Assembly (NCBI GenBank): GCA_023443725.1 | Contig: JAEZTF010000010.1 | Location: 29,948-93,947, forward strand | Length of the DNA: 64,000 nucleotides | Reading direction: 5' to 3' | Source: Candidatus Parcubacteria bacterium | GTDB taxonomy: Bacteria; Patescibacteriota; Microgenomatia; UBA12405 | Part shown: positions 19,415 through 52,758 of the stretch, piece after piece | Numbering within the stretch: position 1 is the first letter of the stretch | Layout: each line of letters begins with the position of its first letter | The notes under the pieces: model-generated | What the model was told of the DNA's origin: nothing | What the model saw: only the letters and a program-made list of their open reading frames with translations | Databases searched by the model: none | Position numbers and translations under genes: made by a program

Positions 19415-20584
19415 TCAGCCGTTTTTTCTTAAAAAAGCAGGGATATCAAATTCGTCAACTATATCAACGCCAGTAGGTATATCTTTATCACCTAAAAATT
19501 TTTTAATTTGATGATCACTTAATTCTTTTACTTCTAAAGAATTAGCAGTGGGTGTTTGTTGAATAATTGGATCTCTATCTATTTGAGGTATTGGTTTTTT
19601 TATAGAACTGTAAAATTGACTTTTAGTATTATCAAATCCAGTAGCAATAACAGAAATTTTTATTTTTCCTTTTAATTCTTTATCGATAGTAGTACCAAAA
19701 ATAATATTGGCATCTGGAGCACTTCTTTCAGTTATGGTTCTAGCAGCTTCTTCTATTTCGGCCATAGTAAGATCTGGTCCTCCAGTAATATTAATCAAGA
19801 CACCTCTAGCACCTTGAATTTCGACTTCAACCAAAGGTGAGTTAATGGCTTCTTCGACTGCTTTTTTAGCTCGAGAATCACCTTCTGCTTCTCCTACTCC
19901 CATAAGTGCAGTACCAGCATTACTCATAACAGATTTGATATCGGCAAAGTCTAAATTTATTAATCCTGGATTAGTAATAAGATCAGCAATAGCTTTCGTA
20001 CCTTTATTTAGTACTGAATCGGCAATTTTGAAAGCTTCTAAAAGAGTGGCCTTATCGTTAACTACTTCCATAACTTTTTGGTTTGGAATGACAATTAAGG
20101 TATCGACATTATTGCGTAATTGAGAAATTCCCTCTTCAGCATTAGTCATACGACGAGTTCCTTCAAAAGCAAATGGTTTGGTGACTACTCCAATAGTTAG
20201 AATACCTAATTCTTTTTTGGCTATTTGAGCAATTATAGGAGCTGCTCCGGTGCATGTTCCTCCACCCATTCCACCAGTAATAAAAACCATATCTGTACCA
20301 GCTAAAACTTCTTTGATTCTTTCCTTAGATTCTTCGGCTGCCTTTTGACCCATTTGAGGATTACCTCCAGCACCTAAACCTTTGGTTAGTTTTTCTCCTA
20401 TTTGAATTTTTATTGGGGCAAGAGAATTTAATAAAGCTTGTGAATCGGTGTTTACGGCAATAAAATCAACTCCAATAATACTATCTTCGGAAATCATCGA
20501 ATTAATAGCATTATTACCGCCGCCACCGACACCGATGACTTTAATTTTGGCAAATTGTCCAGTTAATGTTTTTACTAATCCCAT
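19415..20584 (-). CDS. ftsZ: Cell division protein FtsZ
   Basis: VIGVGGGGNNAIN, the tubulin signature region GGMGGGTCTGAAP (Cys at the fifth position) and a C-terminal DIPAFLRK peptide. Confidence 0.95.
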   Translation of the reverse strand: MGLVKTLTGQFAKIKVIGVGGGGNNAINSMISEDSIIGVDFIAVNTDSQALLNSLAPIKIQIGEKLTKGLGAGGNPQMGQKAAEESKERIKEVLAGTDMVFITGGMGGGTCTGAAPIIAQIAKKELGILTIGVVTKPFAFEGTRRMTNAEEGISQLRNNVDTLIVIPNQKVMEVVNDKATLLEAFKIADSVLNKGTKAIADLITNPGLINLDFADIKSVMSNAGTALMGVGEAEGDSRAKKAVEEAINSPLVEVEIQGARGVLINITGGPDLTMAEIEEAARTITERSAPDANIIFGTTIDKELKGKIKISVIATGFDNTKSQFYSSIKKPIPQIDRDPIIQQTPTANSLEVKELSDHQIKKFLGDKDIPTGVDIVDEFDIPAFLRKNG

Positions 20585-20586
20585 AG

Positions 20587-21843
20587 TTACGGTAAGATAG
20601 GCTCAATTAATTTTTTGACTCGACCAATAATACCTCCAAAATTTAGTTTTATTTTTCTGTTCGAAGAAGAACTAGAAGTATTGTCTTTGTTTTCTCTAGC
20701 CGTCATAAGTAAACCAATAGTACTAGTGTATGCAGGATTGAGAATATCATCGACGATACCTCCCATTTTTGGGGGAAAAGCAATTCTAAAAGGTAAAGGA
20801 ATTATTTTTTCACAAATTTCTTTTGCATTGACGGTTTGGGCACCACCACCAGTAAGAACAATTCCGGCTGGAATTACATGATGCAAATTGGCTGACTCTA
20901 ATTGATTAAAAATTAGATTAAATATTTCTTCAAGTCTTGGTTTGATAATTCCATTAGTGGCAGTTTGAATTGATATTTTTCTGTTTTTATCAAGAGAATC
21001 TATATCTAGTTTGGAAATTTCAATCTCATCATCAAAGTTTTTATTTTCAACTAACTTGTTTAATTTAAGTTTTATTTTTTCAGCATCATCAAGAGAAAAT
21101 CTTAGTCCTATAGCCAAATCATTAGTAACATTATTAGCACCGATAGGAATCACTGAAGAAAATATAGGAGCACCTTCATTAAAAACAGTGATAGTAGTAA
21201 CACTACCACCGATATCTACAAGTGCGACTCCTAATTCTTTTTCGGTTTCACTTAGACTGGCTTTTGCAGCAGCTAAACCAGAAAAAGTAAGATTGTTTAT
21301 ATGGATACCAATATCTTCAAGACATTTTCTAAGATTTTTAAGTGACGGCGTTGAAGCTAGAACAATGTGAGTTTCTACTTCAAGCCTAGTACCATTCATA
21401 CCAATAGGATCGACTACTCCTTCTTGACCATCAACAGTATATTTAATTGGTATTATGTGAATTATTTCTTTTCCAGGTGGTATAGCGATGGCCTTAGCGG
21501 CTTCAACTACTCGATTAATATCATTTTGGTCAATTTCACCGTTGGGGTTGCTAATAGCTACTACACCATGTGAGTTAACAGATTCGATATATGGTGCTGA
21601 TAAAGAGATAGAAGCAGAATTGATTTGAAAACCAGCCATTCTTTCAGCAGATTCTATACTTTGAGTAATAGTGTTGGATGCTTGGTCAATATTAATAATT
21701 TGACCTTTTCTAAAACCTGTGGCAGGGATTGAAGATACAGCAATAATATTAAATTTATCCTCTACTTCCTGATATTGACCGATTATAGTGGTTACTTTTG
21801 AAGTTCCGATATCAATGCCACTAATTGTTTTTGAGTGTTGCAT
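20587..21843 (-). CDS. ftsA: Cell division protein FtsA
   Basis: Actin-like ATPase motifs (GIDIGTSKV, VDIGGSVTT, LTGGGAQ) and its position upstream of ftsZ. Confidence 0.9.
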   Translation of the reverse strand: MQHSKTISGIDIGTSKVTTIIGQYQEVEDKFNIIAVSSIPATGFRKGQIINIDQASNTITQSIESAERMAGFQINSASISLSAPYIESVNSHGVVAISNPNGEIDQNDINRVVEAAKAIAIPPGKEIIHIIPIKYTVDGQEGVVDPIGMNGTRLEVETHIVLASTPSLKNLRKCLEDIGIHINNLTFSGLAAAKASLSETEKELGVALVDIGGSVTTITVFNEGAPIFSSVIPIGANNVTNDLAIGLRFSLDDAEKIKLKLNKLVENKNFDDEIEISKLDIDSLDKNRKISIQTATNGIIKPRLEEIFNLIFNQLESANLHHVIPAGIVLTGGGAQTVNAKEICEKIIPLPFRIAFPPKMGGIVDDILNPAYTSTIGLLMTARENKDNTSSSSSNRKIKLNFGGIIGRVKKLIEPILP

Positions 21844-22198
21844 AAGGATGATCGATGCTAAGATCGACTAAATTAAATTGTCTATTATTCATTTTAGCTG
21901 TTTTAGAAAGATCTTGCAAAGATACAATTTGCCAATATGGATCTTTTTGAGTAGAAATAATAACTTTAACTAAATTATTATTGTTATCTTGTAAATAAAA
22001 TTCAACTTCATTTAAATAATCTCTAATAGTTAAATTAATAGGATCTAATTGACTGGTTTTAAAAGCATTGTTTAATTTATCGTAAAAATCGTTTTGGTTT
22101 GATTTTGGAGTAATAGTTGAGGGATAAGTTTTAATTATAGTAAAAGCAATTATTCCAATAGTTAAAGTCAAACTAAAAATGATTTTAAATAATTTCAT
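21821..22198 (-). CDS. Short membrane-anchored protein in the ftsQ/divIB position
   Basis: N-terminal TM helix plus a ~95-aa periplasmic domain. The assignment rests on synteny only. Confidence 0.35.
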   Translation of the reverse strand: MKLFKIIFSLTLTIGIIAFTIIKTYPSTITPKSNQNDFYDKLNNAFKTSQLDPINLTIRDYLNEVEFYLQDNNNNLVKVIISTQKDPYWQIVSLQDLSKTAKMNNRQFNLVDLSIDHPYATLKNN

Positions 22199-23276
22199 AA
22201 ATTAACTTTAATAGTTTCAGATTAATTTGATTTTTTATATTTTTATTCTGAAACTTTATTAGTTTTAGTGAATTGATGGATGATAAAAGATTCTTACTGT
22301 TTAATTGGGATTGATCAATAATAATAGTTTGTTGTGGTAATTGTTGTTTAACCCAATTAGCATTTATTAACTGTTCATTTTGTTGACTTTTGGGCAAAGG
22401 AATCAGAATGGATCTTTGATTAAAAGCAACAATTTCTTGGCTAGTATTAGCACCACTTCGACTAATAATTATTGAGGCTTTTTTGAAAATCCACCCCATA
22501 TATTCTGTTTTTATATAATCAAAAGGATAATAATTTTTATATTTTGAAGACAATTTTTTAAATTTCTCGAAGTCTAATGGTCCAGTTTGATGAATAATTA
22601 AAAAATCTTTTAAGTTTGGTAAGATTTTTTTAATAGTTAAGTTAATAACATGCGATCCTTGATTACCAGCGGTAATATAAATAATTGGTTTTTGGTTAGA
22701 TTTAATTGAAGGAATTTTAATTTCTTGAGTAAATAATTCATAGCGGAGTAAATTTCCAGTAACAGCGGTTTTTGTTTTAGGTAAACTTTTTAATTGTTTT
22801 TGATTGTCGAAAGACAAGGCAATTTTAGTTACAAACAAACTGTTTATTTTTGTGGTTAAGCTATTAGTAGCGGTTTGTTCATGAGTAATAGTAGGAATGT
22901 GTTTTAAACAACCATTAATGATTACAGGAACAGAAACATAACCACCAAAAGAAACAATTACATCAGGTTTAATTTTGACTATAATTCTTTTTGATTCAAA
23001 AAAACCAATTATAGTTTTTTTTATACCTCTAAGAGTATTGGGAAAGTACTTACGATCAAATTTACCACATTCAATACCAAAATAACTTATCCCCAATTCA
23101 GGAATAATCTTTGATTCAATTGACTTTTCTTGGCCTTCCGAAGAATTTAATTTACGGCCAATATAATAAATGGTCCAATTAAATTTGGAGTCATTTTTAA
23201 GTTGACGAATCAGTTCTAGAGCTGGTGTGAGATGAGTGCCGGTGATGATGATTATCTTTGTTATCTTTTGACTCAT
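22185..23276 (-). CDS. murG: MurG-like GT28 glycosyltransferase (lipid I to lipid II)
   Basis: N-terminal IIITGTHLTPAL (a degenerate G-loop), C-terminal SRSGANTSQEIVAF...ILIPLP, and dcw position. Confidence 0.75.
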   Translation of the reverse strand: MSQKITKIIIITGTHLTPALELIRQLKNDSKFNWTIYYIGRKLNSSEGQEKSIESKIIPELGISYFGIECGKFDRKYFPNTLRGIKKTIIGFFESKRIIVKIKPDVIVSFGGYVSVPVIINGCLKHIPTITHEQTATNSLTTKINSLFVTKIALSFDNQKQLKSLPKTKTAVTGNLLRYELFTQEIKIPSIKSNQKPIIYITAGNQGSHVINLTIKKILPNLKDFLIIHQTGPLDFEKFKKLSSKYKNYYPFDYIKTEYMGWIFKKASIIISRSGANTSQEIVAFNQRSILIPLPKSQQNEQLINANWVKQQLPQQTIIIDQSQLNSKNLLSSINSLKLIKFQNKNIKNQINLKLLKLIYEII

Positions 23277-24366
23277 GATTTGAGTATAGCAGGGTTGTGT
23301 TATTTTTTTCGATATTATGAACCAACCCGATGGCGGCGGCTAAAGTAGTTAAAGATGATCCACCATAAGAAATAAATGGTAAAGGAACTCCGGTTAAAGG
23401 GATAATACCAGCAATTGCTGAAACATTAATTAATGTTTGATAAGTAATCCATAAAGCAGTGCCTGAAACTATAAGAGATTGAAAATTGTCAGGAATAATA
23501 TTGGCTAATTTAAACAAATAAGAAATTAAAGAAATATAAACAATTATTATAGAAAATAATCCGATGAATCCGGTTTCTTCACCAATAACCGCCAGAATGG
23601 AATCAGTAGATATTTTTGGAAGAAAACTATATTTTTGATCTGAATTAGCAAAACCTTTACCAAAAAAACCACCAGAAGCTAGAGTTAAAGTAATTTGATT
23701 ACTATGATATGAAGCCGTGTTTTGATTTTGTTCAGGATTTAGCATAGTTTTTAATCTAGCAGACCTATAAGGAGAAGTTAAAACCAATATCAAACTAATC
23801 GAAACTAAAAAAACACAAAATGTAAGAAGTGAGCTAATTTTGCCACCCCCAAGGTAATAAAGTGAAATAGAAATAGCCGATATTAAAATAGCTGTACTTA
23901 AATTTGGTTCTATAATTATTAGTACAAAAGGAATACCTAAATAAACAACCAAGTTTTTTAATTGACAATTTTCACTTTTTGAAAAAAATTTTGAAAGAAA
24001 TAACACTAAACTCAGTTTTAAAATTTCTGATGGTTGAAATTTAACGATGCCCAAATTCAACCAACGATGAGCTCCAAGAGTTTCATCACTAAATCCTGGA
24101 ATAATAACTAATATCAAAGCAATAATTGAAAAAATAAAAAATAAAGGAATATATTTTTGAATAGTTTTAAGTTTTATCTTAGAAAAAATAAAATAAACTA
24201 CAAAACTAATTATTAACCAAAGACTTTGTTTTCTAAGAAAGAAAAACTTATCTCCAATACTAGTAGTAGCTTCACTAAGTGAAGCAATGGAAATAAAAAT
24301 AATTCCAATAGCAATTAGAATAGAAATTAGGGAAATTAAAGGTGATTTAAATGCTGACGGTTTCAT
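23197..24366 (-). CDS. ftsW: SEDS-family protein FtsW
   Basis: FQPSEILKL, FLPKISTDSILA and GVPLPFISYGGSS. The ATG at 24366 (MKPSAFK...) is preferred over the track start at 24489. The 3' end overlaps murG by 80 nt. Confidence 0.8.
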   Translation of the reverse strand: MKPSAFKSPLISLISILIAIGIIFISIASLSEATTSIGDKFFFLRKQSLWLIISFVVYFIFSKIKLKTIQKYIPLFFIFSIIALILVIIPGFSDETLGAHRWLNLGIVKFQPSEILKLSLVLFLSKFFSKSENCQLKNLVVYLGIPFVLIIIEPNLSTAILISAISISLYYLGGGKISSLLTFCVFLVSISLILVLTSPYRSARLKTMLNPEQNQNTASYHSNQITLTLASGGFFGKGFANSDQKYSFLPKISTDSILAVIGEETGFIGLFSIIIVYISLISYLFKLANIIPDNFQSLIVSGTALWITYQTLINVSAIAGIIPLTGVPLPFISYGGSSLTTLAAAIGLVHNIEKNNTTLLYSNHESKDNKDNHHHRHSSHTSSRTDSST

Positions 24367-25480
24367 TGGCAGATTTGATAATTGAGGGTTTGATATTGAT
24401 AGGATTGTTTTGATTAGAAAATGGAATAAAATCTCGATAACGACTACAGGTATTATTTGATTTATCTTTTTTGGTAATTTCAGAACCAATGATTTTAGAA
24501 TTGTAAAATCTTTTATTTTCTTGAGGGATATCTATTTTTGTTTCTATTGGTAAGAATGATAAAAGATGAAAGAAAAAAAGTGAATTAATATTATTTCTAA
24601 TTTCGATTTGATGGTAAAGATCAAAAGAAGCTGTTAATCTTGGATTACATTCTAAAATGAAAACTTCTTCTTGATCAGTTACAAAAAAATCTAGACCAAA
24701 GAAACCATGATAATCAAAATTTGATAATACATCGGCAAGTTGTTCAGTTAAAATTTTAATTTTTTCAACAATTTTTGTTGGAGCAAACGATGGCCATTGT
24801 CGACCAACAGTAGTGAAAGGGTTTTGAGTAAATTGAGAAAGTCCAGTATATTGTAGTCCCGGTGGACTTTGAATTAGACCAGCGTTGGTAAGACAACAAT
24901 TATTAATTAATGAATAACCAGATAAAAATGGTGTAAATTTTACTGGAGTTTGAAGTGGAATTTTATCTTTTATATCTTCCCAATTTGATGAACTAAAGGT
25001 GCTTTTACCAGCCCAACCGAATCTGGTTTGAAGAACTAAATGTTTATTTAATACTTGTTGATATTTTTCAAAGTTTTCTTGATTGAATTTATCAATAATT
25101 GATGGAATTGTAGGTAAATAATGTTTTTTACAAAGTTTAGAAAAATTTATTTTATCTTCTAAAAAGCGATTTATTTTGGCTGGATTAGCGGCGTAAATCC
25201 AATTTTTTTGATGACAGATATGTTCTATCTTTCCCGAAGGTTTGAATGGAATTATAACTGCTTGGTGGCCAGTTTGTTTAATTTTGTTTTTAATAAAATT
25301 AATAGTTATGACTTCTGATAATAATTTCCCCGAATTTTTAATTTTATTGTTTAAATTCAAAATATCTGAATTTAATAAATAAAAATTACTTATTTCTTTA
25401 ATATTGATAGTTAAAAACTTATCAACACTAATAAAGAAAAAATCAAAATTACTATTTTGAAGTGTGTTAATTAGATTCAT
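24347..25480 (-). CDS. ATP-grasp superfamily ligase, not Ddl-like in sequence
   Basis: FGWAGKSTF (P-loop-like lysine region) and the C-terminal HGFFGLDFFVTDQEEVFILECNPRLTAS (ATP-grasp Mg/ATP-binding E-x-N motif). Confidence 0.65.
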   Translation of the reverse strand: MNLINTLQNSNFDFFFISVDKFLTINIKEISNFYLLNSDILNLNNKIKNSGKLLSEVITINFIKNKIKQTGHQAVIIPFKPSGKIEHICHQKNWIYAANPAKINRFLEDKINFSKLCKKHYLPTIPSIIDKFNQENFEKYQQVLNKHLVLQTRFGWAGKSTFSSSNWEDIKDKIPLQTPVKFTPFLSGYSLINNCCLTNAGLIQSPPGLQYTGLSQFTQNPFTTVGRQWPSFAPTKIVEKIKILTEQLADVLSNFDYHGFFGLDFFVTDQEEVFILECNPRLTASFDLYHQIEIRNNINSLFFFHLLSFLPIETKIDIPQENKRFYNSKIIGSEITKKDKSNNTCSRYRDFIPFSNQNNPINIKPSIIKSANETVSI

Positions 25481-26298
25481 CTTTTGGCACCGGTTAAAAG
25501 AATAACTGGAAAGTTTCCAACATCGATTCCATTTTTAATCGCTTTTTGATAACCGGCTAAAGCTAATGATCCTTCTAAAGAAGTAAAAATATTTTTAGAT
25601 TCGAGTAGTTGATTGGCTAATAAAATAGCTTCATTTTGAACAGTAAAAGCCGAACCATTACAATTCTTAATATTTGAAATAATTTTGTCTTTTAGGGGTA
25701 TAAATTTTACAGATAAAGCATCAGTAATTAGTCTGTTTTCAGGTATAAAGTTGTTATCAAAGCGTTTGGAAATAGGACAGTTACTGGCCGATTGAACAGC
25801 AAAAATCTTAGTTGAAGGTGGAAGTTTTTGGGCAATTCCGAGAAGGGTAGTACCACTACCAACAGGAATAAAAATACTGCTAATTTGTGGTAAATCTTGA
25901 ATAACTTCTAAGGCAATTTGTTGATATCCGATTAAAGCTGAAGGATCGGTTGATTGACGAAGTAGATAAACTTGTTTACTTTTTGCATATTTAATAGCAT
26001 CGCTAATAGGTTGGTCACTTAAAATAATTTCAGCAGAGTATTGCTTTAAAAGATCTAATTTCTTTTGATTTACTTTTGAAGATAAAAATATAGTTAATTC
26101 AATCTGATTGATTTGGCAAAAATGAGCCGCTGAAATTGCTGCATTACCAGTACTAGAGATAACAGCTTTAGTGAAACCAAGATGTTTTAAGTTTTCTATT
26201 TGAAACGGTATGGCTCTATCTTTAGCTGAACCGGTTGGGTTTTGGTCTTCCCTTTTTAAATAAAAATTGTCTATTTTAACTAAAGGAGTATTTGTCAT
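25477..26298 (-). CDS. Fold-type II PLP-dependent enzyme (threonine synthase / cysteine synthase / serine racemase superfamily), short form
   Basis: LKREDQNPTGSAKDRA (PLP-lysine motif), SSTGNAA, PVGSGTT. Confidence 0.75.
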   Translation of the reverse strand: MTNTPLVKIDNFYLKREDQNPTGSAKDRAIPFQIENLKHLGFTKAVISSTGNAAISAAHFCQINQIELTIFLSSKVNQKKLDLLKQYSAEIILSDQPISDAIKYAKSKQVYLLRQSTDPSALIGYQQIALEVIQDLPQISSIFIPVGSGTTLLGIAQKLPPSTKIFAVQSASNCPISKRFDNNFIPENRLITDALSVKFIPLKDKIISNIKNCNGSAFTVQNEAILLANQLLESKNIFTSLEGSLALAGYQKAIKNGIDVGNFPVILLTGAKR

Positions 26299-26341
26299 AT
26301 AATTGGCTAATTATACTAATTATATATTTTTTATCTTTAAT

Positions 26342-26506
26342 ATGACAGAAACAAAGAAAGTTAAATGTCCTGATTGTGGAGCTGAAATTTTATTATCTGG
26401 AACTGAAGAAGTCGGTGATATTTTGGAATGTGGCGAGTGTGGTACTGAAGTAGAAATTACTTCTATTGATCCTCTTTCTTTTAGAGAATTAGTCGAAGAG
26501 AAATAA
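26342..26506 (+). CDS. LysW-like zinc-ribbon small protein (54 aa) with an acidic tail
   Basis: MTETKKVKCPDCGAEILLSGTEEVGDILECGECGTEVEITSIDPLSFRELVEEK. The CPxCGAEI...GE/DIxxCxxCGxExE pattern and length match my recollection of Thermus LysW, but the C-terminus is VEEK, not EDWGE. It is the only plus-strand gene inside the dcw block. Confidence 0.5.
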   Translation: MTETKKVKCPDCGAEILLSGTEEVGDILECGECGTEVEITSIDPLSFRELVEEK

Positions 26507-27061
26507 TCTGTAAATACCTTGATTCTCAAAATTCAGATCAGTTAAATCGGCTTGTCCATAATGAACTCCCCTATTATCTCTTGAACTATCGACATATAAA
26601 ATAATATTGTCTTTTTTCTCGATGATAAACAAAACATGATGACCATTCTTTTGACGAACTAGGTCGCCAGTTTGAATATCAGTAATATTTGTAATTTTTT
26701 TTGATAAAGGAGTGGAAGTTAACATGTCAGCAGAAGTTTTTCGAGGATTAAGATCTACTTTTTTATTGATCAAAGAACCATAGAATATTAGCAACTGACA
26801 AACTAATCCGGAGCAATCGATACCGATTTTATTTTTCTTTTGAAAATTGTAAATTTCTCTTTCTGAAAGATTTAATAATTTTAAATTTTCTTGGTTAGCC
26901 AATTCAACAGTTTTAAGAGCGATATCTTTAGCGTTTCCCTTACCTCCCATAAATCCCTCTTTGATTATTTTGCCGTCTTTTAAAGTATTCTTCCAATATG
27001 GAATACCGATGTATTTACTGATTTCTAATTTTAATTGATTGATTAATTCAGGCCCAACCAT
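26489..27061 (-). CDS. NlpC/P60 (C40) family cysteine peptidase, no obvious signal peptide
   Basis: GIDCSGLVCQLL (catalytic Cys) and GHHVLFII (His). The ATG at 27061 is preferred over the track start at 27097. Confidence 0.7.
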   Translation of the reverse strand: MVGPELINQLKLEISKYIGIPYWKNTLKDGKIIKEGFMGGKGNAKDIALKTVELANQENLKLLNLSEREIYNFQKKNKIGIDCSGLVCQLLIFYGSLINKKVDLNPRKTSADMLTSTPLSKKITNITDIQTGDLVRQKNGHHVLFIIEKKDNIILYVDSSRDNRGVHYGQADLTDLNFENQGIYRLFLFD

Positions 27062-28077: not shown

Positions 28078-28079
28078 AA

Positions 28080-29408
28080 TTAAATTTTAATATATTCAAT
28101 ATTAGCACCTAAGGAAGAAAGTCGTTCAGCTAATTTTTCGTAGCCTCGTTCTATAAATTCGACACCATCTATAGTAGATATTCCATCAGCAACTAAAGCA
28201 GCTATAGTAGTTGAGGCTCCGGCTCGAAGATCATCAATAACAAAATTAGTTGGTTGTAATTTGGTTGGTCCATATATTTTTACTCCGTGAAAAAAGTTAG
28301 GGTTGTCATTTTCTGGATTAAATTGATAGTAAGTTTCTGGATTTTCAACTATAGGATTAAATAATTGGACTTTTGCTCCCATTTTTTGTAAGTTAGCAAT
28401 ATGTTGAAAACGACTTGGATAGACTTTTTCGATTACCGAACTACAACCTACTGATTGAGTCAAAAGAATTGAAAATAAAGCTTGCCAGTCAGTCATAAAA
28501 GCTGGTTCTGGTCCAGTTTCGATATTGATAGCTTTTAATGGTTTTTCCCAAGAAATATATATTTCTTCCTCCCCTGTTTGGACTTTAGCTCCCATATTTT
28601 CGATGGTATCTAAAAATGTTTTAACCGTTTTTGGATCAGCCCTAAGAATATTGACACTACCTTTGGTGGCTAGAGCAGCGCAAGCAAAAGTAACAATTTC
28701 ATTTCGATCACAAATTACTTGATGTTGAGTACCGGTTAGAGATGAAACTCCTTGGATAACAATTTTTCCAGGGTCAGATGGTTCTCTTTGAATTTTTCCA
28801 CCCATTTTATTTAAAAGAATTATTAGATCGTCTATTTCTGGTTCTTGGCCACAATTTTCTAAAATAGTTTCTCCTGGAACTAATACAGCTGTCATAATTA
28901 AAGTTTCAGTGACGGTATGAGAAGGTTTATTAAAAACATAATGAACTGGTTTAATTTTTTCAGTAGTAAAAACTAAGTTAGTTTCTGTTTCCTTGGTTTG
29001 AATATTCATTTTTGAAAAACAGTCAATTAGACGATCTAGAGGCCTATTGCCAAGACGATCTCCTCCTGGAGTAGGAACTACAGCTTGCCCAGTTCTGGCT
29101 AATAGTGGAGCAGAAAACATAAATGAACTACGAGATTTAATTCCAGTTCCTTGTGGGACAGTAAAATTTTTTATTTTTGAGGTAGTTACTTTGATGCAAT
29201 GTTCACCACAAGAACTTATTTCTGATCCTAAAGATTTTGCAATGCTTTCGGTTATTTTTATATCAGAAATATTGGGAATATTGGTTAATTGGGTAGTTTG
29301 ATCAGAAAGCATAGAAGCAATAATTTGTTTATAGCTAGCATTCTTTGCTCCTCTAATAGAAACTTCACCTTGAAGTTTTTTCCCGCCAGAGATGATATAT
29401 CGTGACAT
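28080..29408 (-). CDS. murA: UDP-N-acetylglucosamine 1-carboxyvinyltransferase, Asp at the Cys115-equivalent position
   Basis: ISGGKKLQGEVSIRGAKNA... and PGGDRLGNRPLDRLI (E. coli PGGCTIGARPVDLHI). Confidence 0.9.
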   Translation of the reverse strand: MSRYIISGGKKLQGEVSIRGAKNASYKQIIASMLSDQTTQLTNIPNISDIKITESIAKSLGSEISSCGEHCIKVTTSKIKNFTVPQGTGIKSRSSFMFSAPLLARTGQAVVPTPGGDRLGNRPLDRLIDCFSKMNIQTKETETNLVFTTEKIKPVHYVFNKPSHTVTETLIMTAVLVPGETILENCGQEPEIDDLIILLNKMGGKIQREPSDPGKIVIQGVSSLTGTQHQVICDRNEIVTFACAALATKGSVNILRADPKTVKTFLDTIENMGAKVQTGEEEIYISWEKPLKAINIETGPEPAFMTDWQALFSILLTQSVGCSSVIEKVYPSRFQHIANLQKMGAKVQLFNPIVENPETYYQFNPENDNPNFFHGVKIYGPTKLQPTNFVIDDLRAGASTTIAALVADGISTIDGVEFIERGYEKLAERLSSLGANIEYIKI

Positions 29409-29413
29409 AAATA

Positions 29414-30787
29414 TTAGTGAATATTTTTAATAATTGATTTAATAATTTTATTACCAGACAAACCACCAGAACTCATATATATAAGGATATCATTTGATGA
29501 TAAATGATGTATATAGTAGGCTTTTATTTCTTTTTCGATAGGAATATAAATCAACTTTGATCCAATTTCTTGTTTAAAGTCTTTAGCAGTAGCACGAGAT
29601 TTTTTGTCTACATTAGGGTTAAATCTAATTGGTCCTAAAACTATTTCATTAGCTTTTGTAAAAGCTTTTTTTAAGCCAATTAAATTACTTTTATATTGGG
29701 TAAATGAGGCATGAGGTTGAAAGAATACTTTTATTAATTTATCTGGAAAATGAGTTGTTAAAGCTTCAATGGTTGATTTAATACGATTTGGTGATTGAGC
29801 GAAATCTTCAAAAAACAAAATATTTTTTTGTTTATCAATTAATTCTAATCGCCTTTTAACTCCTCTATAAGAAAAAACAGCTTTTTGAATAAAACGAAAA
29901 CTAATACCTAATTGATCAGACATACTAACTGCAGCCAGAATATTCTCAAAGTTAAATTGACCGATAAGAGTAGTTTGAATAGATAACGGACCTTTGGGGG
30001 TATGGATTAATAAGTTGGTTATATCAGATTTAATATTTATTTTTTCTATAAAATAATCAGATTCTGGAGAATTATAGGAAACAATTTTAGCTTTTGAATA
30101 AAGACTAAGTTTTTTGGTTTGACAGCCAAGAGAATTGATTAAAAGGGTGCCATTTTCTGGTAGTCGATTAATTAATTTCTTAAAAGCTTGAAAATTTTTT
30201 ATTTTACTAGAATAAGAATCTTTATGTTCCCAATCGGCACTAGTTAAAATTAAATGTTTAATTGGATAATATAAAAACTTAGCTTTTCGATCTAATCCAT
30301 TAATTGATTCATCGGCTTCAACGATAGACCAATTAGATGGAGAGAAGTTAATAGAGTTCATCTTATTTTTGGCGTATCCACCAAACATGTAATTTGGATC
30401 TTTTTTAGCTTGAATGAAAATCCAAGACAATAGACTAGTGATAGTAGTTTTTCCAAAACTACCAGCAATTAAGACAGACTCATCTTTAATTAAGTTTTGA
30501 GCTAAATAATTAGTAGCAGAAATATAGGGAATTTTTAGTTTTTTTATTTGATTAAATTCTTTTTTGGTTTTTTCAAAAGAAAGATATGATGATCCAATAA
30601 TAGCCAAATCAATATTAGTATTGATTTCTATCGAATTGATCGATATATCCGCTTTTTTTAACATAGTACTAATTGGGGGATAAATTTTTTCTTGATCTGA
30701 TCCGGTTATATAAACTCCTCTTTTTTTGAGATTAACTGCCAGAGGAGCAGTCATGGTTCCAGCTATTCCGACTATGTGAATATGCAT
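29414..30787 (-). CDS. Mur ligase of the Mpl/MurC family, closer to Mpl (UDP-MurNAc:tripeptide ligase) by motif
   Basis: MHIHIVGIAGTMTAPLA...ITGSDQEKIYPPISTML (Mpl-type YPPMST motif), AGSFGKTT, EADES, RRLEL, EDFAQSP. Confidence 0.75.
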   Translation of the reverse strand: MHIHIVGIAGTMTAPLAVNLKKRGVYITGSDQEKIYPPISTMLKKADISINSIEINTNIDLAIIGSSYLSFEKTKKEFNQIKKLKIPYISATNYLAQNLIKDESVLIAGSFGKTTITSLLSWIFIQAKKDPNYMFGGYAKNKMNSINFSPSNWSIVEADESINGLDRKAKFLYYPIKHLILTSADWEHKDSYSSKIKNFQAFKKLINRLPENGTLLINSLGCQTKKLSLYSKAKIVSYNSPESDYFIEKINIKSDITNLLIHTPKGPLSIQTTLIGQFNFENILAAVSMSDQLGISFRFIQKAVFSYRGVKRRLELIDKQKNILFFEDFAQSPNRIKSTIEALTTHFPDKLIKVFFQPHASFTQYKSNLIGLKKAFTKANEIVLGPIRFNPNVDKKSRATAKDFKQEIGSKLIYIPIEKEIKAYYIHHLSSNDILIYMSSGGLSGNKIIKSIIKNIH

Positions 30788-30802
30788 ATTAGTAAATAGC
30801 TA
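30788..30802 (-). repeat. 15-nt motif TAGCTATTTACTAAT directly abutting the start codon of the mpl-like gene
   Basis: An identical 15-mer lies 1 nt upstream of the galE ATG (60536..60550). A 14/15 copy is at 61538..61552. Confidence 0.8.
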
Positions 30803-30822
30803 ATAAATAGTTAATAGTTGAA

Positions 30823-31419
30823 TTATTTTTCATATGGAAGCCATTGATTGTCTTTAAAATATTCAAATCCAGGCATATTACGTTTATAGAATCCAGTTTC
30901 AATAGAAAAACGACCTAAATAACAAAATTGAAGATTTTGTTGTTGACTGTCAACAATGGTTTGTAACACCAATCTAATAGGTAAATTACTATGATTATAT
31001 TTAGGATTATAAAAAACATAAGCAATATGACTAATAGAGTTAGAAAAATAACATATTGAATAAGCAATTATCTGATGATTTTCATTATACCAACTATAAA
31101 TAGTATTAAAAATATGATTAGTAAATGTTTTTTTGACTGAACTTATGGGAAAATCCCAACCTAATTGTTTTATCCAAGAAAAAATTTCTTTTTGAATATT
31201 AAGATCAAATTTAAAATCGTTCAAATTAGTTTTAATAAAAGAAAAATTATCAGTTTTTCTTAAAATCCTTCTATTTTCTGAACTGAGATTAAACTTGGAT
31301 AAATTTGATCGACAACTACTATCCTGATACCAAAGATCTTTTTGGTTTCTTTGAGGAAGGAATCCTTGTTGATAATTTAATTCTATAGATTGATTGTTGG
31401 TTAAATTAAATTGGGTCAT
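30823..31419 (-). CDS. ATE/Bpt-like (arginyl/leucyl-tRNA-protein transferase family, ATE_C-type) protein
   Basis: FNLSSENRRILRK, IAYVFYNPKY...L and FCYLGRFSIETGFYKRNMPGFEYFKDNQW parallel the ATE_C pattern (SavYfFYdP...YLGYyi...M.YK..f.P.E.l....W) as I recall it. Confidence 0.55.
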   Translation of the reverse strand: MTQFNLTNNQSIELNYQQGFLPQRNQKDLWYQDSSCRSNLSKFNLSSENRRILRKTDNFSFIKTNLNDFKFDLNIQKEIFSWIKQLGWDFPISSVKKTFTNHIFNTIYSWYNENHQIIAYSICYFSNSISHIAYVFYNPKYNHSNLPIRLVLQTIVDSQQQNLQFCYLGRFSIETGFYKRNMPGFEYFKDNQWLPYEK

Positions 31420-32735
31420 ATTTTTTTTAATTTTAAAGCAGTTCTAAAAGCTTCTGTTTCTGACCAAGGATATTCAGTATTTCCATGAAGAATAGTATCT
31501 TCATGACCTTTACCACAAGCAATCACAACATCATCGGGTTGGGCTAACTTAATAGCTATATTGAAAGCGTCCTGTCGATTGGGAATATTAAAATAAGTAA
31601 ATTTTTGGTCAATCTTTTTTAGAATATCATTTATTTGTTTTTGATTTTCAATTTTTTGAATGTCAACAAAATTGGATTTATTAGGATCAATACCATTGAT
31701 TATTTGTTGATTAATTTGACTAATATCTTCGTTTCTAGTGTCGTCTGAAGTAATAATGGCAATATCAGCTAGACTAGAGACTACTTGACCCATTTGAGGT
31801 CGTTTTGTTTGATCTCGTCCGCCTGTGGCTCCAAAAATAATAATAATTTTACCTTTAGTAATTTTCTTTAATGAAGAAAGAGTTTTTTCTAAAGCGTTTG
31901 GAGTATGGGCAAAATCAACAATTGTTTTAAATTTAAAATTATTTTTAACTTCTTCTCGACGACCTTTGGTTTCGGGAAAATTTTTAACTGTTTCGAGTAA
32001 GAATTGTCGATTAATTTTTAAGTTATCAATAATTCCTAAGGCAACCAATATATTATTAATCTGATAAAAATAATTACTATCAGTGGTTATGGTTAGTTTA
32101 TTTACTTTAAAACTTAATTTTTTATTAGTTAATTTAATATCTTTAGCTTGATAATCTGACTTTTGGTCAACACTGTAAGTTGAGTAAGGAATTTGAATCA
32201 TAGGTTTAATTATTTGATATGACGAATCGTCTTTATTGATAATGCCATAATCTGATTGAGAGAAAATTTTTGCTTTAGACTGAATATACTCTTCCATGTT
32301 TGAATAATAATCTAAATGCTCATGTGAAGTGTTGGTAATAGCTGCAGTTATAAAGTGGCAACCTAAAAATCGATATTGATCAAGGCCATGAGCAGTAACT
32401 TCACAAACTACATGAGTAACTCCTGCAGCTAACATTTGACTAAGTATTTGCTGAAATAATTTTGGATCTGGACTAGTCATATGTAAACCAGTACTTATTT
32501 CTTGATTATTTCCAAACTTAGCGCCTATTGTAGTAATTACACCGGCATTAATACCAGCTTTTTTTAAAATTTCATAAACTAAAATACAACTAGTTGTTTT
32601 ACCATCGGTTCCAGTAATACCAATAAGTTTTAGTTTTTTTGCTGGAAAATTATGTTGAAGACTGACAAAAAAGTTTTTTGGGTAATGCCAGAAAAGATTT
32701 TTTATTTTTTGAAAATTGATCGATTTTAATGACAT
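31416..32735 (-). CDS. murE: UDP-N-acetylmuramoyl-L-alanyl-D-glutamate--diamino acid ligase
   Basis: GITGTDGKTT, EVTAHGLDQYR, TNTSHEHLDYY and ITSDDTRNED (a variant of the DNPR specificity motif). Confidence 0.85.
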   Translation of the reverse strand: MSLKSINFQKIKNLFWHYPKNFFVSLQHNFPAKKLKLIGITGTDGKTTSCILVYEILKKAGINAGVITTIGAKFGNNQEISTGLHMTSPDPKLFQQILSQMLAAGVTHVVCEVTAHGLDQYRFLGCHFITAAITNTSHEHLDYYSNMEEYIQSKAKIFSQSDYGIINKDDSSYQIIKPMIQIPYSTYSVDQKSDYQAKDIKLTNKKLSFKVNKLTITTDSNYFYQINNILVALGIIDNLKINRQFLLETVKNFPETKGRREEVKNNFKFKTIVDFAHTPNALEKTLSSLKKITKGKIIIIFGATGGRDQTKRPQMGQVVSSLADIAIITSDDTRNEDISQINQQIINGIDPNKSNFVDIQKIENQKQINDILKKIDQKFTYFNIPNRQDAFNIAIKLAQPDDVVIACGKGHEDTILHGNTEYPWSETEAFRTALKLKKI

Positions 32736-32749
32736 ATTTAGCGAGTTAA

Positions 32750-34369
32750 TTATAACAAATGGTTGATTTTAGAGGCTAATTCAAACCAAATTGGAGCAGC
32801 AGTACTAGAACCCCAAGGTGAACTTTTAGGATTATTAATAGTTACAATCATGGTAAATTTTGGATTATCACATGGAGAAAAACCAATATAGGAAGCAATG
32901 GTTGAAGAATCAGTATAACCACCTTTTACAGCAATTTGAGCGGTACCACTTTTAGCACAAACTTCAAGATTTTTTGGTTTCATAACAGAAACTACTCCAT
33001 TTTCGACAGAATATTTAAGGATTGATTTAATTTCTTCAATCGAATTTTGATTGAAAATTTGTTGTGGATTATTGTTTTTGTCTATTAAAATGTGAGGTTT
33101 AACTAATAACCCATTGTTAGCAATAGTATTAAATGCTTGCAACATACCTACTTGAGTAACGACTATTCCCTGTCCAAATGAAGCAGTAGCTAGATCTATA
33201 TCTGGCCAATTAGTTTTAGTACTAGGACGTGATTCTCCTTGCAAATCAATACCAGTTTTTTGGTTGAGACCAAGTTTTTGAAAATAATTTAAAAACTTTT
33301 CTAAACCAATTTTTGAGATAATATGGCTCATACCGATATTGTCGGAATTTTTTATGATCTCTTTAAGAGATGAGTCTGGATGGGTTTCGTTATCATGATT
33401 GGTTATAGTATATTCCCCTATTTTTAGAGGTTTATCGCATTCATGGCAAACATAATCAGGAGAAATTGATTTACTATCCAAACCAATAGTGACAACTAAT
33501 GGTTTAAATATTGATCCTGGTTCAAAAAGATCAGAAATTGAATTTATTTTTGTAGCACTGGGAGTGGCTGAAGTGGTGGCAGTAAAAGTGGTCATAGCTA
33601 AAATACCTCCGGTTTTACTATCCATAACTGTAATGGATCCAGAATCGGCATCATATTTTTCAACACCTTCTTTTAATTCTTTTTCTACTTCAAATTGAAC
33701 ACTGCGATTTAAAGTGGTGTGTAAATCTTGTCCGTCAATAGCAATAGAATTCCAAGACTTTTTAGTAAGAATAGCTTTTCCAGTAGCGTCTTGAGGAGAC
33801 CAAGTAAAACCCGTTTTACCTTTTAATTGTTTTTGGTAATAGCCTTCAAGCCCTCCGTAACCTATATCGTAGCCTTGATCGTTTTTTGCTACCAACCCTA
33901 AAATTGGTTGAGCCAATGATTGTTCTGGATAGTATCTTTTTTCATTTTTTTCAAAACTAAGACCGGGTATTTTAAGTTGGTTTTTTTCTTCTTCGTTAAA
34001 AAGACTAGTGAAAGTTAACCATTTTTGATTTTGATTACTTTTAAACAATTCAATTAACTTTATATTTTCTTGGTTGAATTGTGGATGAATTTGATTGATT
34101 TTTGTAAAAACTTCTTCAAGACTTTGATCTAAATTTGGTTTGTATATCGACAATTTATAATTAGTAACATTAAGAACCAAAGGAAAATCATCGGACGAAT
34201 ATATTTTTCCCCGACTGGGGATAGTTTTCTCAAGTTTGTACATTTGAATTAAAGCCTTTTCTCTTAATTCTGGTCCTTCTATCACTTGAATATAAAAAAA
34301 TCGACAGATTATAAAAATAAAACAGATTATTAAAGTTGTAGAAACAGTTTTAATTCTAGAGCTATTCAT
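32750..34369 (-). CDS. ftsI: Class B penicillin-binding protein (FtsI/PBP2 transpeptidase)
   Basis: N-terminal anchor, dimerisation domain, GSIFKP (SxxK), SDN (SxN), KSGTA (KTG). Confidence 0.9.
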   Translation of the reverse strand: MNSSRIKTVSTTLIICFIFIICRFFYIQVIEGPELREKALIQMYKLEKTIPSRGKIYSSDDFPLVLNVTNYKLSIYKPNLDQSLEEVFTKINQIHPQFNQENIKLIELFKSNQNQKWLTFTSLFNEEEKNQLKIPGLSFEKNEKRYYPEQSLAQPILGLVAKNDQGYDIGYGGLEGYYQKQLKGKTGFTWSPQDATGKAILTKKSWNSIAIDGQDLHTTLNRSVQFEVEKELKEGVEKYDADSGSITVMDSKTGGILAMTTFTATTSATPSATKINSISDLFEPGSIFKPLVVTIGLDSKSISPDYVCHECDKPLKIGEYTITNHDNETHPDSSLKEIIKNSDNIGMSHIISKIGLEKFLNYFQKLGLNQKTGIDLQGESRPSTKTNWPDIDLATASFGQGIVVTQVGMLQAFNTIANNGLLVKPHILIDKNNNPQQIFNQNSIEEIKSILKYSVENGVVSVMKPKNLEVCAKSGTAQIAVKGGYTDSSTIASYIGFSPCDNPKFTMIVTINNPKSSPWGSSTAAPIWFELASKINHLL

Positions 34370-34617
34370 TTTAGATTTACTTTTTGATCAATGTATATGA
34401 GAGGCTTTTTTTGTTGTTCTAGATAAAGATAATTAATAGAAGTCATATCGGTGAATTTTTTTTCTAGGCCTTGAGTTTCTATTTTAAGTTTTTGATGTTC
34501 AATTTGATTTTGATAAAGCTGACTGTTTTGGTTGATAATTTCACTTGAATAATAAAAAGAAAAAACGATTTGAATAGAAATAATTACAACTAAAATGTAA
34601 GTAAAATATTTTGGCAT
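34366..34617 (-). CDS. FtsL-like bitopic division protein
   Basis: 83 aa with a TM helix and a coiled-coil-like segment. Lies between rsmH and ftsI. Confidence 0.5.
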   Translation of the reverse strand: MPKYFTYILVVIISIQIVFSFYYSSEIINQNSQLYQNQIEHQKLKIETQGLEKKFTDMTSINYLYLEQQKKPLIYIDQKVNLK

Positions 34618-35501
34618 TAAACTATTTTATACGATCTAAGGATAGCTGAGCGAGATAGTGGATTTTTTTTGATTTCTTTAAATGAAGGGTGGACTGCTTT
34701 GCTGACTTGGAAAATTTTATTTTCAGACAAATTATTTTGAATAAATTGTTTAATAATTCTATCTTCGCCTGAATGAAAACTAATAAAACAAGCCGTTCCG
34801 TTTGGTTTTATAATGTTTAAACTTTGAGAAAGGATTTGTTTGAGATTGCTAAATTCTTGATTAACAGCAATTTTTAAAGCTAAAAATATTTTAGTACTAG
34901 GATCGGTTTTAGTTCTGATTTTCTTTTCTAAATAAAAATTTCTGATAATATCAGCCAATCTTTTGGCATTGGTAATAGGTTTTTTTTGACGTTCAGAAAT
35001 TATTTTTGATACTAAGTCATGACTATACAATTCTTGACTATTTTTGGAAAAAATTTCATACAACTCTTCGGCAGAACCGATGTTAATGATATCTTTAGCA
35101 GTAGGATCATTGGAATTTTGGTTAATTCGCATATCTAAAGATTCCTCATCGTTAAAAGAAAAACCTCTATTAGTAGAGATTTGTTGGTTTCTACTTAAAC
35201 CTAAATCAACTAAAAGGCCATCAACTTTTTGATTAATTTTTTCGTTAACAATTTTTTGTAGTTGATTAAAATTGGATAATACAGGGGTAAATTTTCCTGA
35301 TAAACCGGCATTTTTGATTCTTTCAGTAGATATTTCTAAATTAGTTTGATCTTGATCTATACCATAAACAATAGCATCTTGTTGAAGAAGGGCTAAAGTA
35401 TGTCCCCCATTTCCTAAAGTAGCATCAATAATAATAGAGTTTGGTTTAATGTTTAGGCTAGATATTACTTCTTCAAGAAGAACTGGTTGGTGATAATCCA
35501 T
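34617..35501 (-). CDS. rsmH: 16S rRNA (cytosine1402-N4)-methyltransferase RsmH/MraW
   Basis: HQPVLLEEV, DATLGNGGHT, SFHSGEDRIIK. Confidence 0.9.
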   Translation of the reverse strand: MDYHQPVLLEEVISSLNIKPNSIIIDATLGNGGHTLALLQQDAIVYGIDQDQTNLEISTERIKNAGLSGKFTPVLSNFNQLQKIVNEKINQKVDGLLVDLGLSRNQQISTNRGFSFNDEESLDMRINQNSNDPTAKDIINIGSAEELYEIFSKNSQELYSHDLVSKIISERQKKPITNAKRLADIIRNFYLEKKIRTKTDPSTKIFLALKIAVNQEFSNLKQILSQSLNIIKPNGTACFISFHSGEDRIIKQFIQNNLSENKIFQVSKAVHPSFKEIKKNPLSRSAILRSYKIV

Positions 35502-37536: not shown

Positions 37537-37680
37537 AGTTCTCCTAAAAAACAATTAATATTTTTTAGGGATCCCGATAAATCAGGACGGTTCCACCCTA
37601 TTTGATAAATTATTTTTTCCAGTTAATTTATCCTCTTTTATTTTTCGGCTCGAGATTTGCCAAATCTGTCATTGCCTTGA
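37537..37680 (-). promoter_or_regulatory. T-box riboswitch-like leader (Gly, GGC specifier) with truncated Stem I and an SD-sequestering helix
   Basis: Minus strand: K-turn hairpin GGC-AAU-GA-C-AGAU[UUGGCAA]AUCU-C-GA-GCC (37676..37647); Stem III (37632..37604); AGGG-UGGAACC-GUCCUGA-UUUA-UCGGGAU-CCCU antiterminator-type fold (37599..37567); CCUAAAAAA-N9-UUUUUUAGG hairpin overlapping the SD (37569..37543). Confidence 0.7.
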
Positions 37681-37686
37681 TGTTGA

Positions 37687-37715
37687 AGTTTATCTTGTTT
37701 TAAGAAAACTGTCAA
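37687..37715 (-). promoter_or_regulatory. Putative promoter TTGACA-17 nt-TAAACT for the glyQS leader
   Basis: The consensus -35 overlaps the stop codon of the upstream GT-C gene. Ideal 17-nt spacer. Confidence 0.55.
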
Positions 37716-43240: not shown

Positions 43241-43268
43241 AGATAAGTTTAAACAAAATTATTACAAA

Positions 43269-43907: not shown

Positions 43908-43908
43908 T

Positions 43909-46073: not shown

Positions 46074-46076
46074 TTT

Positions 46077-48130: not shown

Positions 48131-48131
48131 A

Positions 48132-52755: not shown

Positions 52756-52758
52756 ACT

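Follow-up and report, generated by a model that had tools for sequence, protein, structure and literature searches.

In-place replacement of murC and murD in the dcw operon of Candidatus Shapirobacteria and a possible carrier-based start of the stem peptide

A dcw operon with murC and murD replaced in place

How does a bacterium begin the stem peptide of its peptidoglycan when the genes for MurC and MurD are missing from its division and cell wall (dcw) operon? These two enzymes count as near-universal and essential in the building of the bacterial wall, and also as targets of antibiotics. The question is raised by the dcw cluster of a Candidatus Parcubacteria bacterium (GTDB lineage Patescibacteriota, Microgenomatia, UBA12405; assembly GCA_023443725.1), which we analyzed in a stretch of 64,000 nucleotides of contig JAEZTF010000010.1 (positions 29,948 to 93,947; about 30% G+C), hereafter the window. 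Comparison with related loci showed that in Candidatus Shapirobacteria and close relatives yfiH-murC(-murB) and murD have been swapped in place within this operon. The first slot now holds an ATE-like protein and a divergent ligase of the MurC/Mpl family, and the second an NlpC/P60-like peptidase, a LysW-like carrier, a pyridoxal phosphate (PLP) enzyme and an ATP-grasp enzyme.

The cluster is a tightly packed operon on the minus strand, running from 35501 down to 19415, in which several adjacent genes overlap by 1-4 nucleotides. Gene identities were taken from Pfam and NCBIfam scans, and coordinates are those of the window:

34617..35501, minus: rsmH, which opens the cluster and encodes the 16S rRNA m4C1402 methyltransferase (PF01795, 253.9 bits)
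34366..34617, minus: FtsL-like protein of 83 amino acids with an N-terminal transmembrane helix and a coiled coil, conserved in related loci
32750..34369, minus: ftsI, class B penicillin-binding protein (PF00905, 195.5 bits, and PF03717)
31416..32735, minus: murE (TIGR01085, 342.2 bits, cutoff 257.3)
30823..31419, minus: predicted ATE/Bpt-like aminoacyl-tRNA-dependent transferase of 198 amino acids, overlapping the murE stop by 4 nucleotides
29414..30787, minus: predicted divergent UDP-MurNAc (UDP-N-acetylmuramic acid) ligase of the MurC/Mpl family, 457 amino acids, below the cutoffs of both the TIGR murC and mpl models
28080..29408, minus: murA (TIGR01072, 401.7 bits, cutoff 392.7)
27043..28077, minus: mraY (PF00953, 100.9 bits; E. 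coli MraY, 106 bits)
26489..27061, minus: NlpC/P60-like cysteine peptidase, 190 amino acids from the ATG at 27061 (PF00877, 18.5 bits, cutoff 23)
26342..26506, plus: LysW-like zinc-ribbon carrier of 54 amino acids (PF21344, 47.6 bits, cutoff 27)
25477..26298, minus: fold-type II PLP enzyme (PALP) of 273 amino acids (PF00291, 154.8 bits)
24347..25480, minus: predicted ATP-grasp carboxylate-amine ligase of 377 amino acids, overlapping the PALP gene by 4 nucleotides
23197..24366, minus: ftsW, SEDS glycosyltransferase (PF01098, 295.6 bits; start as in the gene call of the related locus L001)
22185..23276, minus: murG (PF03033 and PF04101)
21821..22198, minus: truncated FtsQ-like protein of 125 amino acids, consisting of a transmembrane helix and the C-terminal part, without a POTRA domain (family hidden Markov model (HMM) against FtsQ of the candidate phyla radiation (CPR), E=3.9e-10)
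20587..21843, minus: ftsA (PF14450 and PF02491)
19415..20584, minus: ftsZ (PF00091 and PF12327)

The FtsL-like protein had no Pfam match, and we infer its role from the position of its gene. A preliminary description of this DNA, made from the letters alone, had listed the same gene order on the minus strand; its coordinates and strand hold except for the LysW-like gene, which lies on the plus strand. It had also reported no murD, murF, ddl, murB or mraZ in the cluster, a statement that can be extended to the whole 64 kb. A phmmer search with E. coli and CPR MurC, MurD, MurE, MurF, Ddl, MurB, MurI and MraZ against all six-frame open reading frames (ORFs) of at least 45 amino acids found only two Mur ligase paralogues and none of the five genes, and Pfam scans that covered most of the window's larger ORFs outside the cluster, which identified RecO, GlyRS and IleRS, revealed no mur, ddl or racemase genes. 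Canonical dcw clusters have mraZ, murF, murD and murC (with murB and ddl) among the fts genes; each of these, canonical murC included, is absent from the 64-kb window and from the loci of the main lineage.

Canonical clusters of other Microgenomates were reached through relatives of the MurF encoded in the outlier locus L077. The gene order in one of them, L087, is mraZ-rsmH-ftsL-ftsI-murE-yfiH-murC-murB-murA-murF-mraY-murD-ftsW-murG-ftsQ-ftsA-ftsZ, flanked by the genes for GlyRS and IleRS as in the window; another, L086, shares this core and has, in addition, glmU/glmS-like genes and ddl ahead of murF. The slot of yfiH-murC-murB in these two clusters holds the ATE-like and ligase genes in the window, and the slot of murD holds the NlpC-like, LysW-like, PLP enzyme and ATP-grasp genes. 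Intermediates were also found: in L169 the accessory set is complete and both murB and murF are still present, while L077, L084 and L085 have murF and mraZ and lack the NlpC-like gene. Since murC and murD are missing from all of these intermediates within the cluster regions read, the core event was the replacement of murC and murD. The loss of murF, murB and mraZ is secondary and variable, as sister lineages keep these genes.

The same arrangement recurs across a diverse lineage. Related loci were collected by a scan of GTDB species genomes (73 loci) and a metagenome scan (80 loci), reading about 10 kb to either side of a known gene, that is, about 20 kb around the cluster, and their ORFs were classified with phmmer and family HMMs. 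Every locus spanning mraY to ftsW (107/107) carries the LysW-like, PLP enzyme and ATP-grasp genes, the LysW-like gene usually antisense, and 104 of them carry the NlpC-like gene as well; murD was found in none of the 107. Likewise, the odd ligase and the ATE-like sequence are present in all 89 loci that span ftsI to mraY, the ATE-like sequence being a separate ORF in 86, fused to the ligase in two and chimeric in one. murA is found in 78 of these loci (11 are without it) and murF in three, and canonical murC, murB and yfiH are absent from all 89. murE is kept in every locus spanning its position. More than 1,500 relatives of the ligase are found in databases, those with names being labelled Candidatus Shapirobacteria or Woesebacteria, and ligase identity drops to 36% across the lineage. 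Because about 150 independent contigs and species show the same gene order, it is not due to chance, and the cluster with its replaced genes is a fixed trait of a diverse lineage. As an observation, the gene arrangement is confirmed and is much stronger than a single window suggests. A search of the literature found no publication describing this gene set, and the cluster is apparently an undescribed, conserved variant of early peptidoglycan synthesis.

Several observations on individual loci and on the upstream flank can be added. In L062 (2634-3689), a single ORF consists of the first ~250 residues of MurE and the last ~70 of the ATE-like protein, probably as a result of a deletion or misassembly in this metagenome-assembled genome (MAG). 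Many of the GTDB-representative MAGs with the Shapirobacteria-type cluster (L009-L081) bear the title 'uncultured Gammaproteobacteria bacterium', and one is called 'Candidatus Methanoperedens'; such labels are evidently placeholders or wrong. The position of mraZ is occupied in the window by a membrane-anchored protein of 236 amino acids (35501-36211, minus) with no Pfam or NCBIfam match, which is conserved there in both canonical clusters and variant ones. The gene for GlyRS (36217-37554, minus), a class II aminoacyl-tRNA synthetase with a zinc-ribbon insertion (NF003211, 563 bits), lies directly upstream of the cluster; the canonical cluster L087 is flanked by it as well, so it is no special feature of the variant.

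The ligase and its ATE-like partner

The preliminary description had labelled the ligase Mpl on the basis of the motifs GSDQEKIYPPISTML and EDFAQSP. Both are present in its translation, and the protein is indeed the sole MurC-family ligase of the cluster, an atypical one with several Mpl-like motifs; it is not, however, a bona fide Mpl. It scores 173.1 bits against the mpl model (TIGR01081, cutoff 388.7) and 231.4 bits against the murC model (TIGR01082, cutoff 335.1), which is the best-scoring NCBIfam model. Comparison with single sequences by phmmer gave 132 bits for E. coli Mpl and 101 bits for E. coli MurC, and the best single PDB match was Mpl of P. arcticus (3HN7); the profile of the ligase family scores equally against MurC 9IR5 (175.9 bits) and Mpl 3HN7 (173.1 bits). 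In neighbour-joining trees the family forms a separate clade with 100% support that does not fall inside the Mpl clade, and with a MurD/MurE/MurF outgroup and two Mpl references it is sister to Mpl with 61% bootstrap and to MurC with 5%. An unrooted tree of the ligase, Mpl and MurC is a trichotomy and was uninformative, and outgroups gave weak resolution. The ligase is best described as a third clade of the MurC/Mpl family.

The motifs of the two families are mixed in the ligase. Among the Mpl signatures given by Das et al. 2011 (PMC3060825), namely GI(C/G)GTFM, Tyr35 (IYPP), SGP, Tyr182, (S/T)AFFDKRSK, RR, FAHH, EPRSNT and SNG, those present or similar in the ligase are GIAGTM, IYPP, DRKAKF, KRR, DFA and SSG, whereas SGP (SAT), Tyr182 (Ser), HH (QS) and EPRSNT (QPHASF) are missing. 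With Mpl of E. coli (b4233) and P. arcticus it shares the three-domain MurC/Mpl architecture, GSDxxIYPPxST, the D(K/R)xxKF loop after EADE, KRRLE, DDFA, MSxGG and a bulky residue in the glycine loop (GIAGTM in the ligase, GICGTF in Mpl). The identity to Mpl is nevertheless only ~24-28%, Asn69/Arg73 are not conserved either, the HH of DDFAHHP is QS, and the QPH motif is MurC-like. The likeness to MurC lies in the position of the gene and in the best-scoring model, but the ligase is only 25-26% identical to MurC of the syntenic canonical Microgenomates and the Tyr, His and Arg residues that bind L-Ala are replaced: of the HiMurC set Tyr346, His348, His376, Arg377 and Arg380, only the equivalent of His376 is kept (four of five replaced), the Y/H of DDYGHHP and R377/R380 of QPHRxxR having given way to DDFAQS and QPHASF. 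A 6-residue loop after EADE was considered as an Mpl-only signature and rejected, since canonical CPR MurC also has an insertion there.

The genomic setting also differs from that of Mpl, as the ligase gene occupies the murC slot of the essential dcw operon and not a recycling locus. Given that murE is kept in every locus spanning its position, and murF in sister lineages, the product of the ligase must still need residue 3 and residues 4-5, and would be shorter than a tripeptide precursor; the retention of murE argues against L-Ala-gamma-D-Glu-mDAP, the tripeptide ligated by Mpl, as the main substrate. What the ligase may have in common with Mpl is the proposed attachment of a preformed peptide to UDP-MurNAc, and Mpl enzymes accept L-Ala-D-Glu, weakly (PMC3060825 Table 3). 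A different kind of Mpl homologue was encountered in a Silvanigrellaceae genome (L082:3511-5892), where it has an N-terminal extension of ~330 amino acids that, judged by its sequence, resembles an LD-carboxypeptidase; this would make it a recycling-type fusion, unlike the Shapirobacteria ligase.

The protein encoded directly before the ligase belongs with ATE by both domain and fold: 36 of 38 family members match the ATE_C domain, and its structure model matches ATE1, MprF and FemX, indicating an ATE1/Fem-type fold. The matches to ATE_C suggest that it is an aminoacyl-tRNA-dependent transferase. It scores at best 31.4 bits against the NCBIfam arginyltransferase models (cutoff 170) and lacks the Cys-rich N-terminal domain ATE_N. 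It further differs from ATE1/Bpt, which transfer Arg or Leu from tRNA to protein N-termini, and from FemX/MurM in its size, only 198 amino acids without the second GNAT domain that Fem proteins have, and in being fused to or adjacent to a UDP-MurNAc ligase. ATE/Bpt enzymes normally aminoacylate N-terminal Asp or Glu. In two loci, L072 and L166, one reading frame encodes the ATE-like protein followed by the ligase, the two being joined in L072 by a Pro/Ser-rich linker, and these fusions provide a Rosetta-stone link between the two activities. Profile searches against PDB sequences with the ATE-like family, as well as with the NlpC-like family, found almost nothing. The GlyRS gene beside the cluster raises the question of whether Gly-tRNA is used by the ATE-like enzyme.

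The carrier module and the remaining wall steps

The four genes in the slot of murD center on the LysW-like protein, a true LysW homologue by comparison with LysW in the PDB (3WWL, E=3.5e-8), although it stays below the cutoff of TIGR01206 (45.1 bits, cutoff 53.2). Its C-terminus reads ...RELVEEK, and the EEK end is found in 106 of 107 distinct homologues and in the carriers of the more distant loci L168, L169, L172 and L173. As in the LysW/LysX systems of Thermus, Sulfolobus and Thermococcus (3WWL, 5K2M, 3VPB), a small zinc-ribbon carrier with an acidic tail is accompanied by an ATP-grasp ligase and by a hydrolase for release. The two nevertheless differ in the tail, invariantly EEK here and ...EDWGE there, in the context, which is here cell wall synthesis, and in their partners, since no homologues of LysZ, LysY, LysJ or LysK were found in the window. 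Classical LysW is loaded on the C-terminal Glu of its EDWGE-type tail. The LysW-like gene is transcribed against the operon, an orientation kept in Shapirobacteria, L168, L169 and L173 and not in L172, and its 3' end and the NlpC-like gene share 18 nucleotides; between it and the PALP gene (26276-26348), divergent sigma-70-like sites lie in a gap of 43 nucleotides.

The PLP enzyme has an intact lysine motif, GSAKDR, as well as SSTGNAA, and its family profile is equidistant (E 1e-14 to 1e-18) from threonine dehydratase, ThrC, CysK and the Ser/Asp racemases. The model of the ATP-grasp enzyme (predicted local distance difference test 96.7) has as its closest folds biotin-carboxylase-type domains and a group of amino-acid/peptide ligases, namely 8YND, BesA, PGM1, L-amino-acid ligases and PylC. 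We had considered this enzyme as an analogue of Ddl; neither sequence nor fold ranking supported this, and it does not belong to Dala_Dala_lig_N/C. The NlpC-like protein has no visible signal peptide and is read as cytoplasmic; the Cys of DCSGL and one His are invariant in its family alignment, and PF00877 was matched at E<0.01 by 21 of 29 relatives. The conserved catalytic Cys and His are shared with NlpC/P60 endopeptidases such as YkfC and MepS, which are gamma-D-glutamyl-diamino acid endopeptidases; enzymes of this family typically cut bonds between gamma-D-Glu and a diamino acid. It differs from them in its very weak match to the family model, its cytoplasmic location and its proposed substrate, which would be a carrier isopeptide and not murein. 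The NlpC/P60-like gene was also considered as a replacement of murF and rejected, as L169 has both.

A HMMER search through 1.8 billion representatives placed 442 clusters (E<=1e-10) in the wider ATP-grasp family. This family includes PALP::ATP-grasp fusions (among them P0394) and four ATP-grasp::NlpC/P60 fusions (P0308, P0312, P0385 and P0386). Enzymes that join CHAP and ATP-grasp domains, such as glutathionylspermidine synthetase/amidase, offer an analogue of the latter pairing, by which the ATP-grasp enzyme could make the bond that the NlpC-like peptidase breaks. A metagenome scan with the ATP-grasp alignment returned only close loci of the main lineage, and more distant contexts were taken from the representative search and contig look-ups. 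In three other lineages (L168, L171 and L173) the module lies beside a MurD-type gene, and in a fourth (L172) NlpC/P60 is fused to one:

L173: mraY-NlpC/P60-MurD-LysW (antisense, ...EEEEK)-PALP-ATP-grasp; MurD scores 284 bits against TIGR01087 (cutoff 212)
L172: NlpC/P60::MurD-type fusion-LysW (...EEEEK)-PALP-ATP-grasp; the ligase part scores 206 bits, just under the cutoff of 212
L168: MurD-LysW (...NEEK)-PALP::ATP-grasp; MurD scores 258 bits
L171: NlpC-like-MurD-like-PALP fragment (assembly gap)-ATP-grasp

The L172 and L173 contigs do not look like CPR, the former being labelled Anaerolineae with 69% G+C and the latter having molybdopterin-enzyme, MoeA and proton-antiporter genes as neighbours. 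The order in L173 is that of Shapirobacteria plus murD, so that the arrangement in the window equals the L173 operon minus murD. Since the module is tied to the MurD step, its most economical role would be the delivery of residue 2 of the stem peptide.

MurE lacks the N-terminal UDP-binding domain, as do all Microgenomates MurE; its P-loop GTDGKTT is present, and in an alignment with E. coli and CPR MurE its DNPR motif reads DDTR, keeping the Arg. The missing domain was discarded as a sign of a substrate off the nucleotide, because MurE of the canonical cluster L087 is also without it. FtsI shows the SxxK, SxN and KSG motifs of a DD-transpeptidase, and a D-Ala-D-Ala-type terminus should therefore still be needed.

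Further features of the window lie outside the cluster. A second SEDS protein of the RodA/FtsW family (15052-16050, minus) is encoded just past IleRS, downstream of ftsZ, as in many related loci. About 19 kb of surface-polysaccharide genes (39133-57748, minus) encode around ten glycosyltransferases (GT1, GT2 and GT4), a Wzy-like polymerase, a Bac_transf priming transferase, a hexapeptide acyltransferase, an NTP-transferase, DUF4012 and DUF192 proteins and a PMT_2-like protein. Two ORFs had no Pfam match (37712-39136, minus, 474 amino acids, and 62115-63497, plus, 460 amino acids); the 474-residue one, also without an NCBIfam match, is conserved beside GlyRS in L001. Although the genome is otherwise very reduced, it encodes GcpE/IspG (11757-12797, minus, 529 bits), adjoining an LCAT/PGAP1-like alpha/beta hydrolase of 804 amino acids with a GTG start (8732-11146, plus).

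A possible route to the stem peptide and its alternatives

From the genomic context, the best explanation is that residue 2 is made on the carrier, residue 1 derives from a tRNA, and the ligase joins the unit to UDP-MurNAc, a proposal to which we give somewhat less than an even chance. The route was pieced together from the requirement of the PLP enzyme for a free alpha-amino group, the specificities of the NlpC/P60 and ATE/Bpt families and the use of preformed peptides by Mpl. The ATP-grasp enzyme would attach L-Glu by the gamma-carboxyl to the Lys that invariantly ends the LysW-like carrier, leaving the alpha-amino group free, and the PLP enzyme would invert the alpha-carbon to give carrier-bound D-Glu, which is probably the residue made. 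The ATE-like enzyme would then add residue 1 (L-Ala, or possibly Gly) from an aminoacyl-tRNA onto the free amino group, the NlpC/P60-like enzyme would cut the gamma-D-glutamyl-Lys bond to free the dipeptide, and the Mpl-like ligase would join this preformed unit to UDP-MurNAc ahead of MurE, after which MurE, MurF where present, MraY and MurG would act as usual. In the lineages that keep MurD, the carrier module would supply or present D-Glu to MurD, with release by NlpC/P60. The more far-reaching claim, that this is an undescribed start of the stem peptide through a LysW-type carrier, that MurC and MurD are dispensable in the whole lineage and that the module is the source of D-Glu for MurD elsewhere, is more doubtful, and we advance it as a tentative proposal.

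Several points weigh against this route. Its support comes throughout from genomic context; which amino acid is carried, where it is attached and in what order the steps occur are guesses, as is attachment to the carrier Lys, since classical LysW uses its C-terminal Glu. The PLP enzyme is more like the ThrC/CysK beta-replacement group than known racemases, the sister position of the ligase to Mpl has a bootstrap of only 61%, and in clusters of the L077 type, which have no NlpC-like gene, a different enzyme would have to take over release. Neither a source of D-Ala-D-Ala nor MurF is seen in the main lineage, although FtsI looks active. Finally, canonical murC and murD could sit elsewhere in the genome, outside the stretch read for each relative, and for murA, murF and murB such movement into and out of the cluster is evident.

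This last point leads to the main alternative, which we consider rather unlikely: canonical murC, murD, murF, ddl and murB would all be located elsewhere, and the genes of the cluster would be accessory, the carrier module supplying D-Glu in place of MurI, the ATE-like protein adding a cross-bridge residue as FemX does, and the ligase being a recycling Mpl or a spare MurC. Besides the mobility of murA, which is missing from 11 of the 89 loci, and of murF and murB, present only in some lineages, the coexistence of the module with MurD in L168, L171, L172 and L173 fits such an accessory role. Fem-type transferases and ATP-grasp D-Asp ligases are known builders of branches (PMC2922099), and published CPR reconstructions call the peptidoglycan pathway essentially complete (PMC7143001). 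On the other hand, murC and murD would both have had to move out, with the newcomers exactly in their slots, in all ~150 loci and three cluster types; the ATE::ligase fusions tie the transferase to UDP-MurNAc ligation and not to late branching; as weak evidence, no longest contig among the top 120 relatives of the L077 MurF equals in length the large contigs of the main lineage; and Shapirobacteria are among the most gene-poor CPR (PMC6744442).

An improbable alternative is that the ligase keeps the job of MurC, adding L-Ala or Gly/Ser, while the ATP-grasp enzyme acts as a non-homologous MurD that adds carrier-made D-Glu and the ATE-like protein serves in editing, as a stand-in for YfiH, or in branching. 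The one-to-one positions of the ligase in the murC slot and the ATP-grasp enzyme in the murD slot are in keeping with this, as are the rank of the murC model, the amino-acid ligase fold of the ATP-grasp enzyme and the finding that overexpressed E. coli Mpl can complement a murC mutant (PMC3060825). However, the ATP-grasp enzyme coexists with a genuine MurD in four other lineages and hence is no MurD substitute there, the residues by which MurC contacts L-Ala are lost from the ligase, and the ATE-like partner, which is universal and sometimes fused, is left unexplained.

Salvage, in which imported host muropeptides would be trimmed by NlpC/P60 and their tri-, tetra- or pentapeptides re-attached to UDP-MurNAc by Mpl, agrees with the episymbiotic lifestyle of CPR, the apparently cytoplasmic location of the peptidase and the Mpl-like motifs GSDxxIYPP, KRRLE, DDFA and MSSGG, but is the least likely alternative, since the attachment of whole peptides would leave no need for murE, kept in every spanning locus, or for murF, kept in sister lineages, no peptide transporter was found in or near the cluster by the Pfam scans of the window, the ligase falls below the cutoff of the Mpl model, and the peptidase also occurs within the MurD-linked carrier module of L172 and L173, neither of which looks like CPR. 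The preliminary description had suggested scavenged or preformed peptides; the preformed peptide is plausible and remains the best-fitting idea, whereas scavenging finds no support. Nor is the peptidase part of a stand-alone salvage toolkit, as proposed there, because it belongs to a module with the LysW-like, PLP and ATP-grasp proteins that elsewhere is beside or fused with MurD.

For the carrier-based route that we prefer, MurD2/MurL of Xanthomonas, a MurD-linked alternative route to the D-Glu residue, is the closest precedent: it is an ATP-consuming entry of D-Glu at position 2 in bacteria without glutamate racemase (PMC8788868). The proteins are nevertheless unrelated, the LysW-like, PLP, ATP-grasp and NlpC/P60 proteins taking part here, and in Shapirobacteria MurD itself is gone from the cluster. 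If the route is correct, early peptidoglycan synthesis would have a second alternative pathway besides MurD2/MurL. A LysW-type carrier would for the first time be seen at work beyond lysine/arginine and secondary metabolism, and a tRNA-dependent step would for the first time serve to build the stem peptide itself as opposed to the cross-bridge. The MurD-linked carrier module, which is also seen on contigs that do not look like CPR, may explain the source of D-glutamate in bacteria without glutamate racemase.

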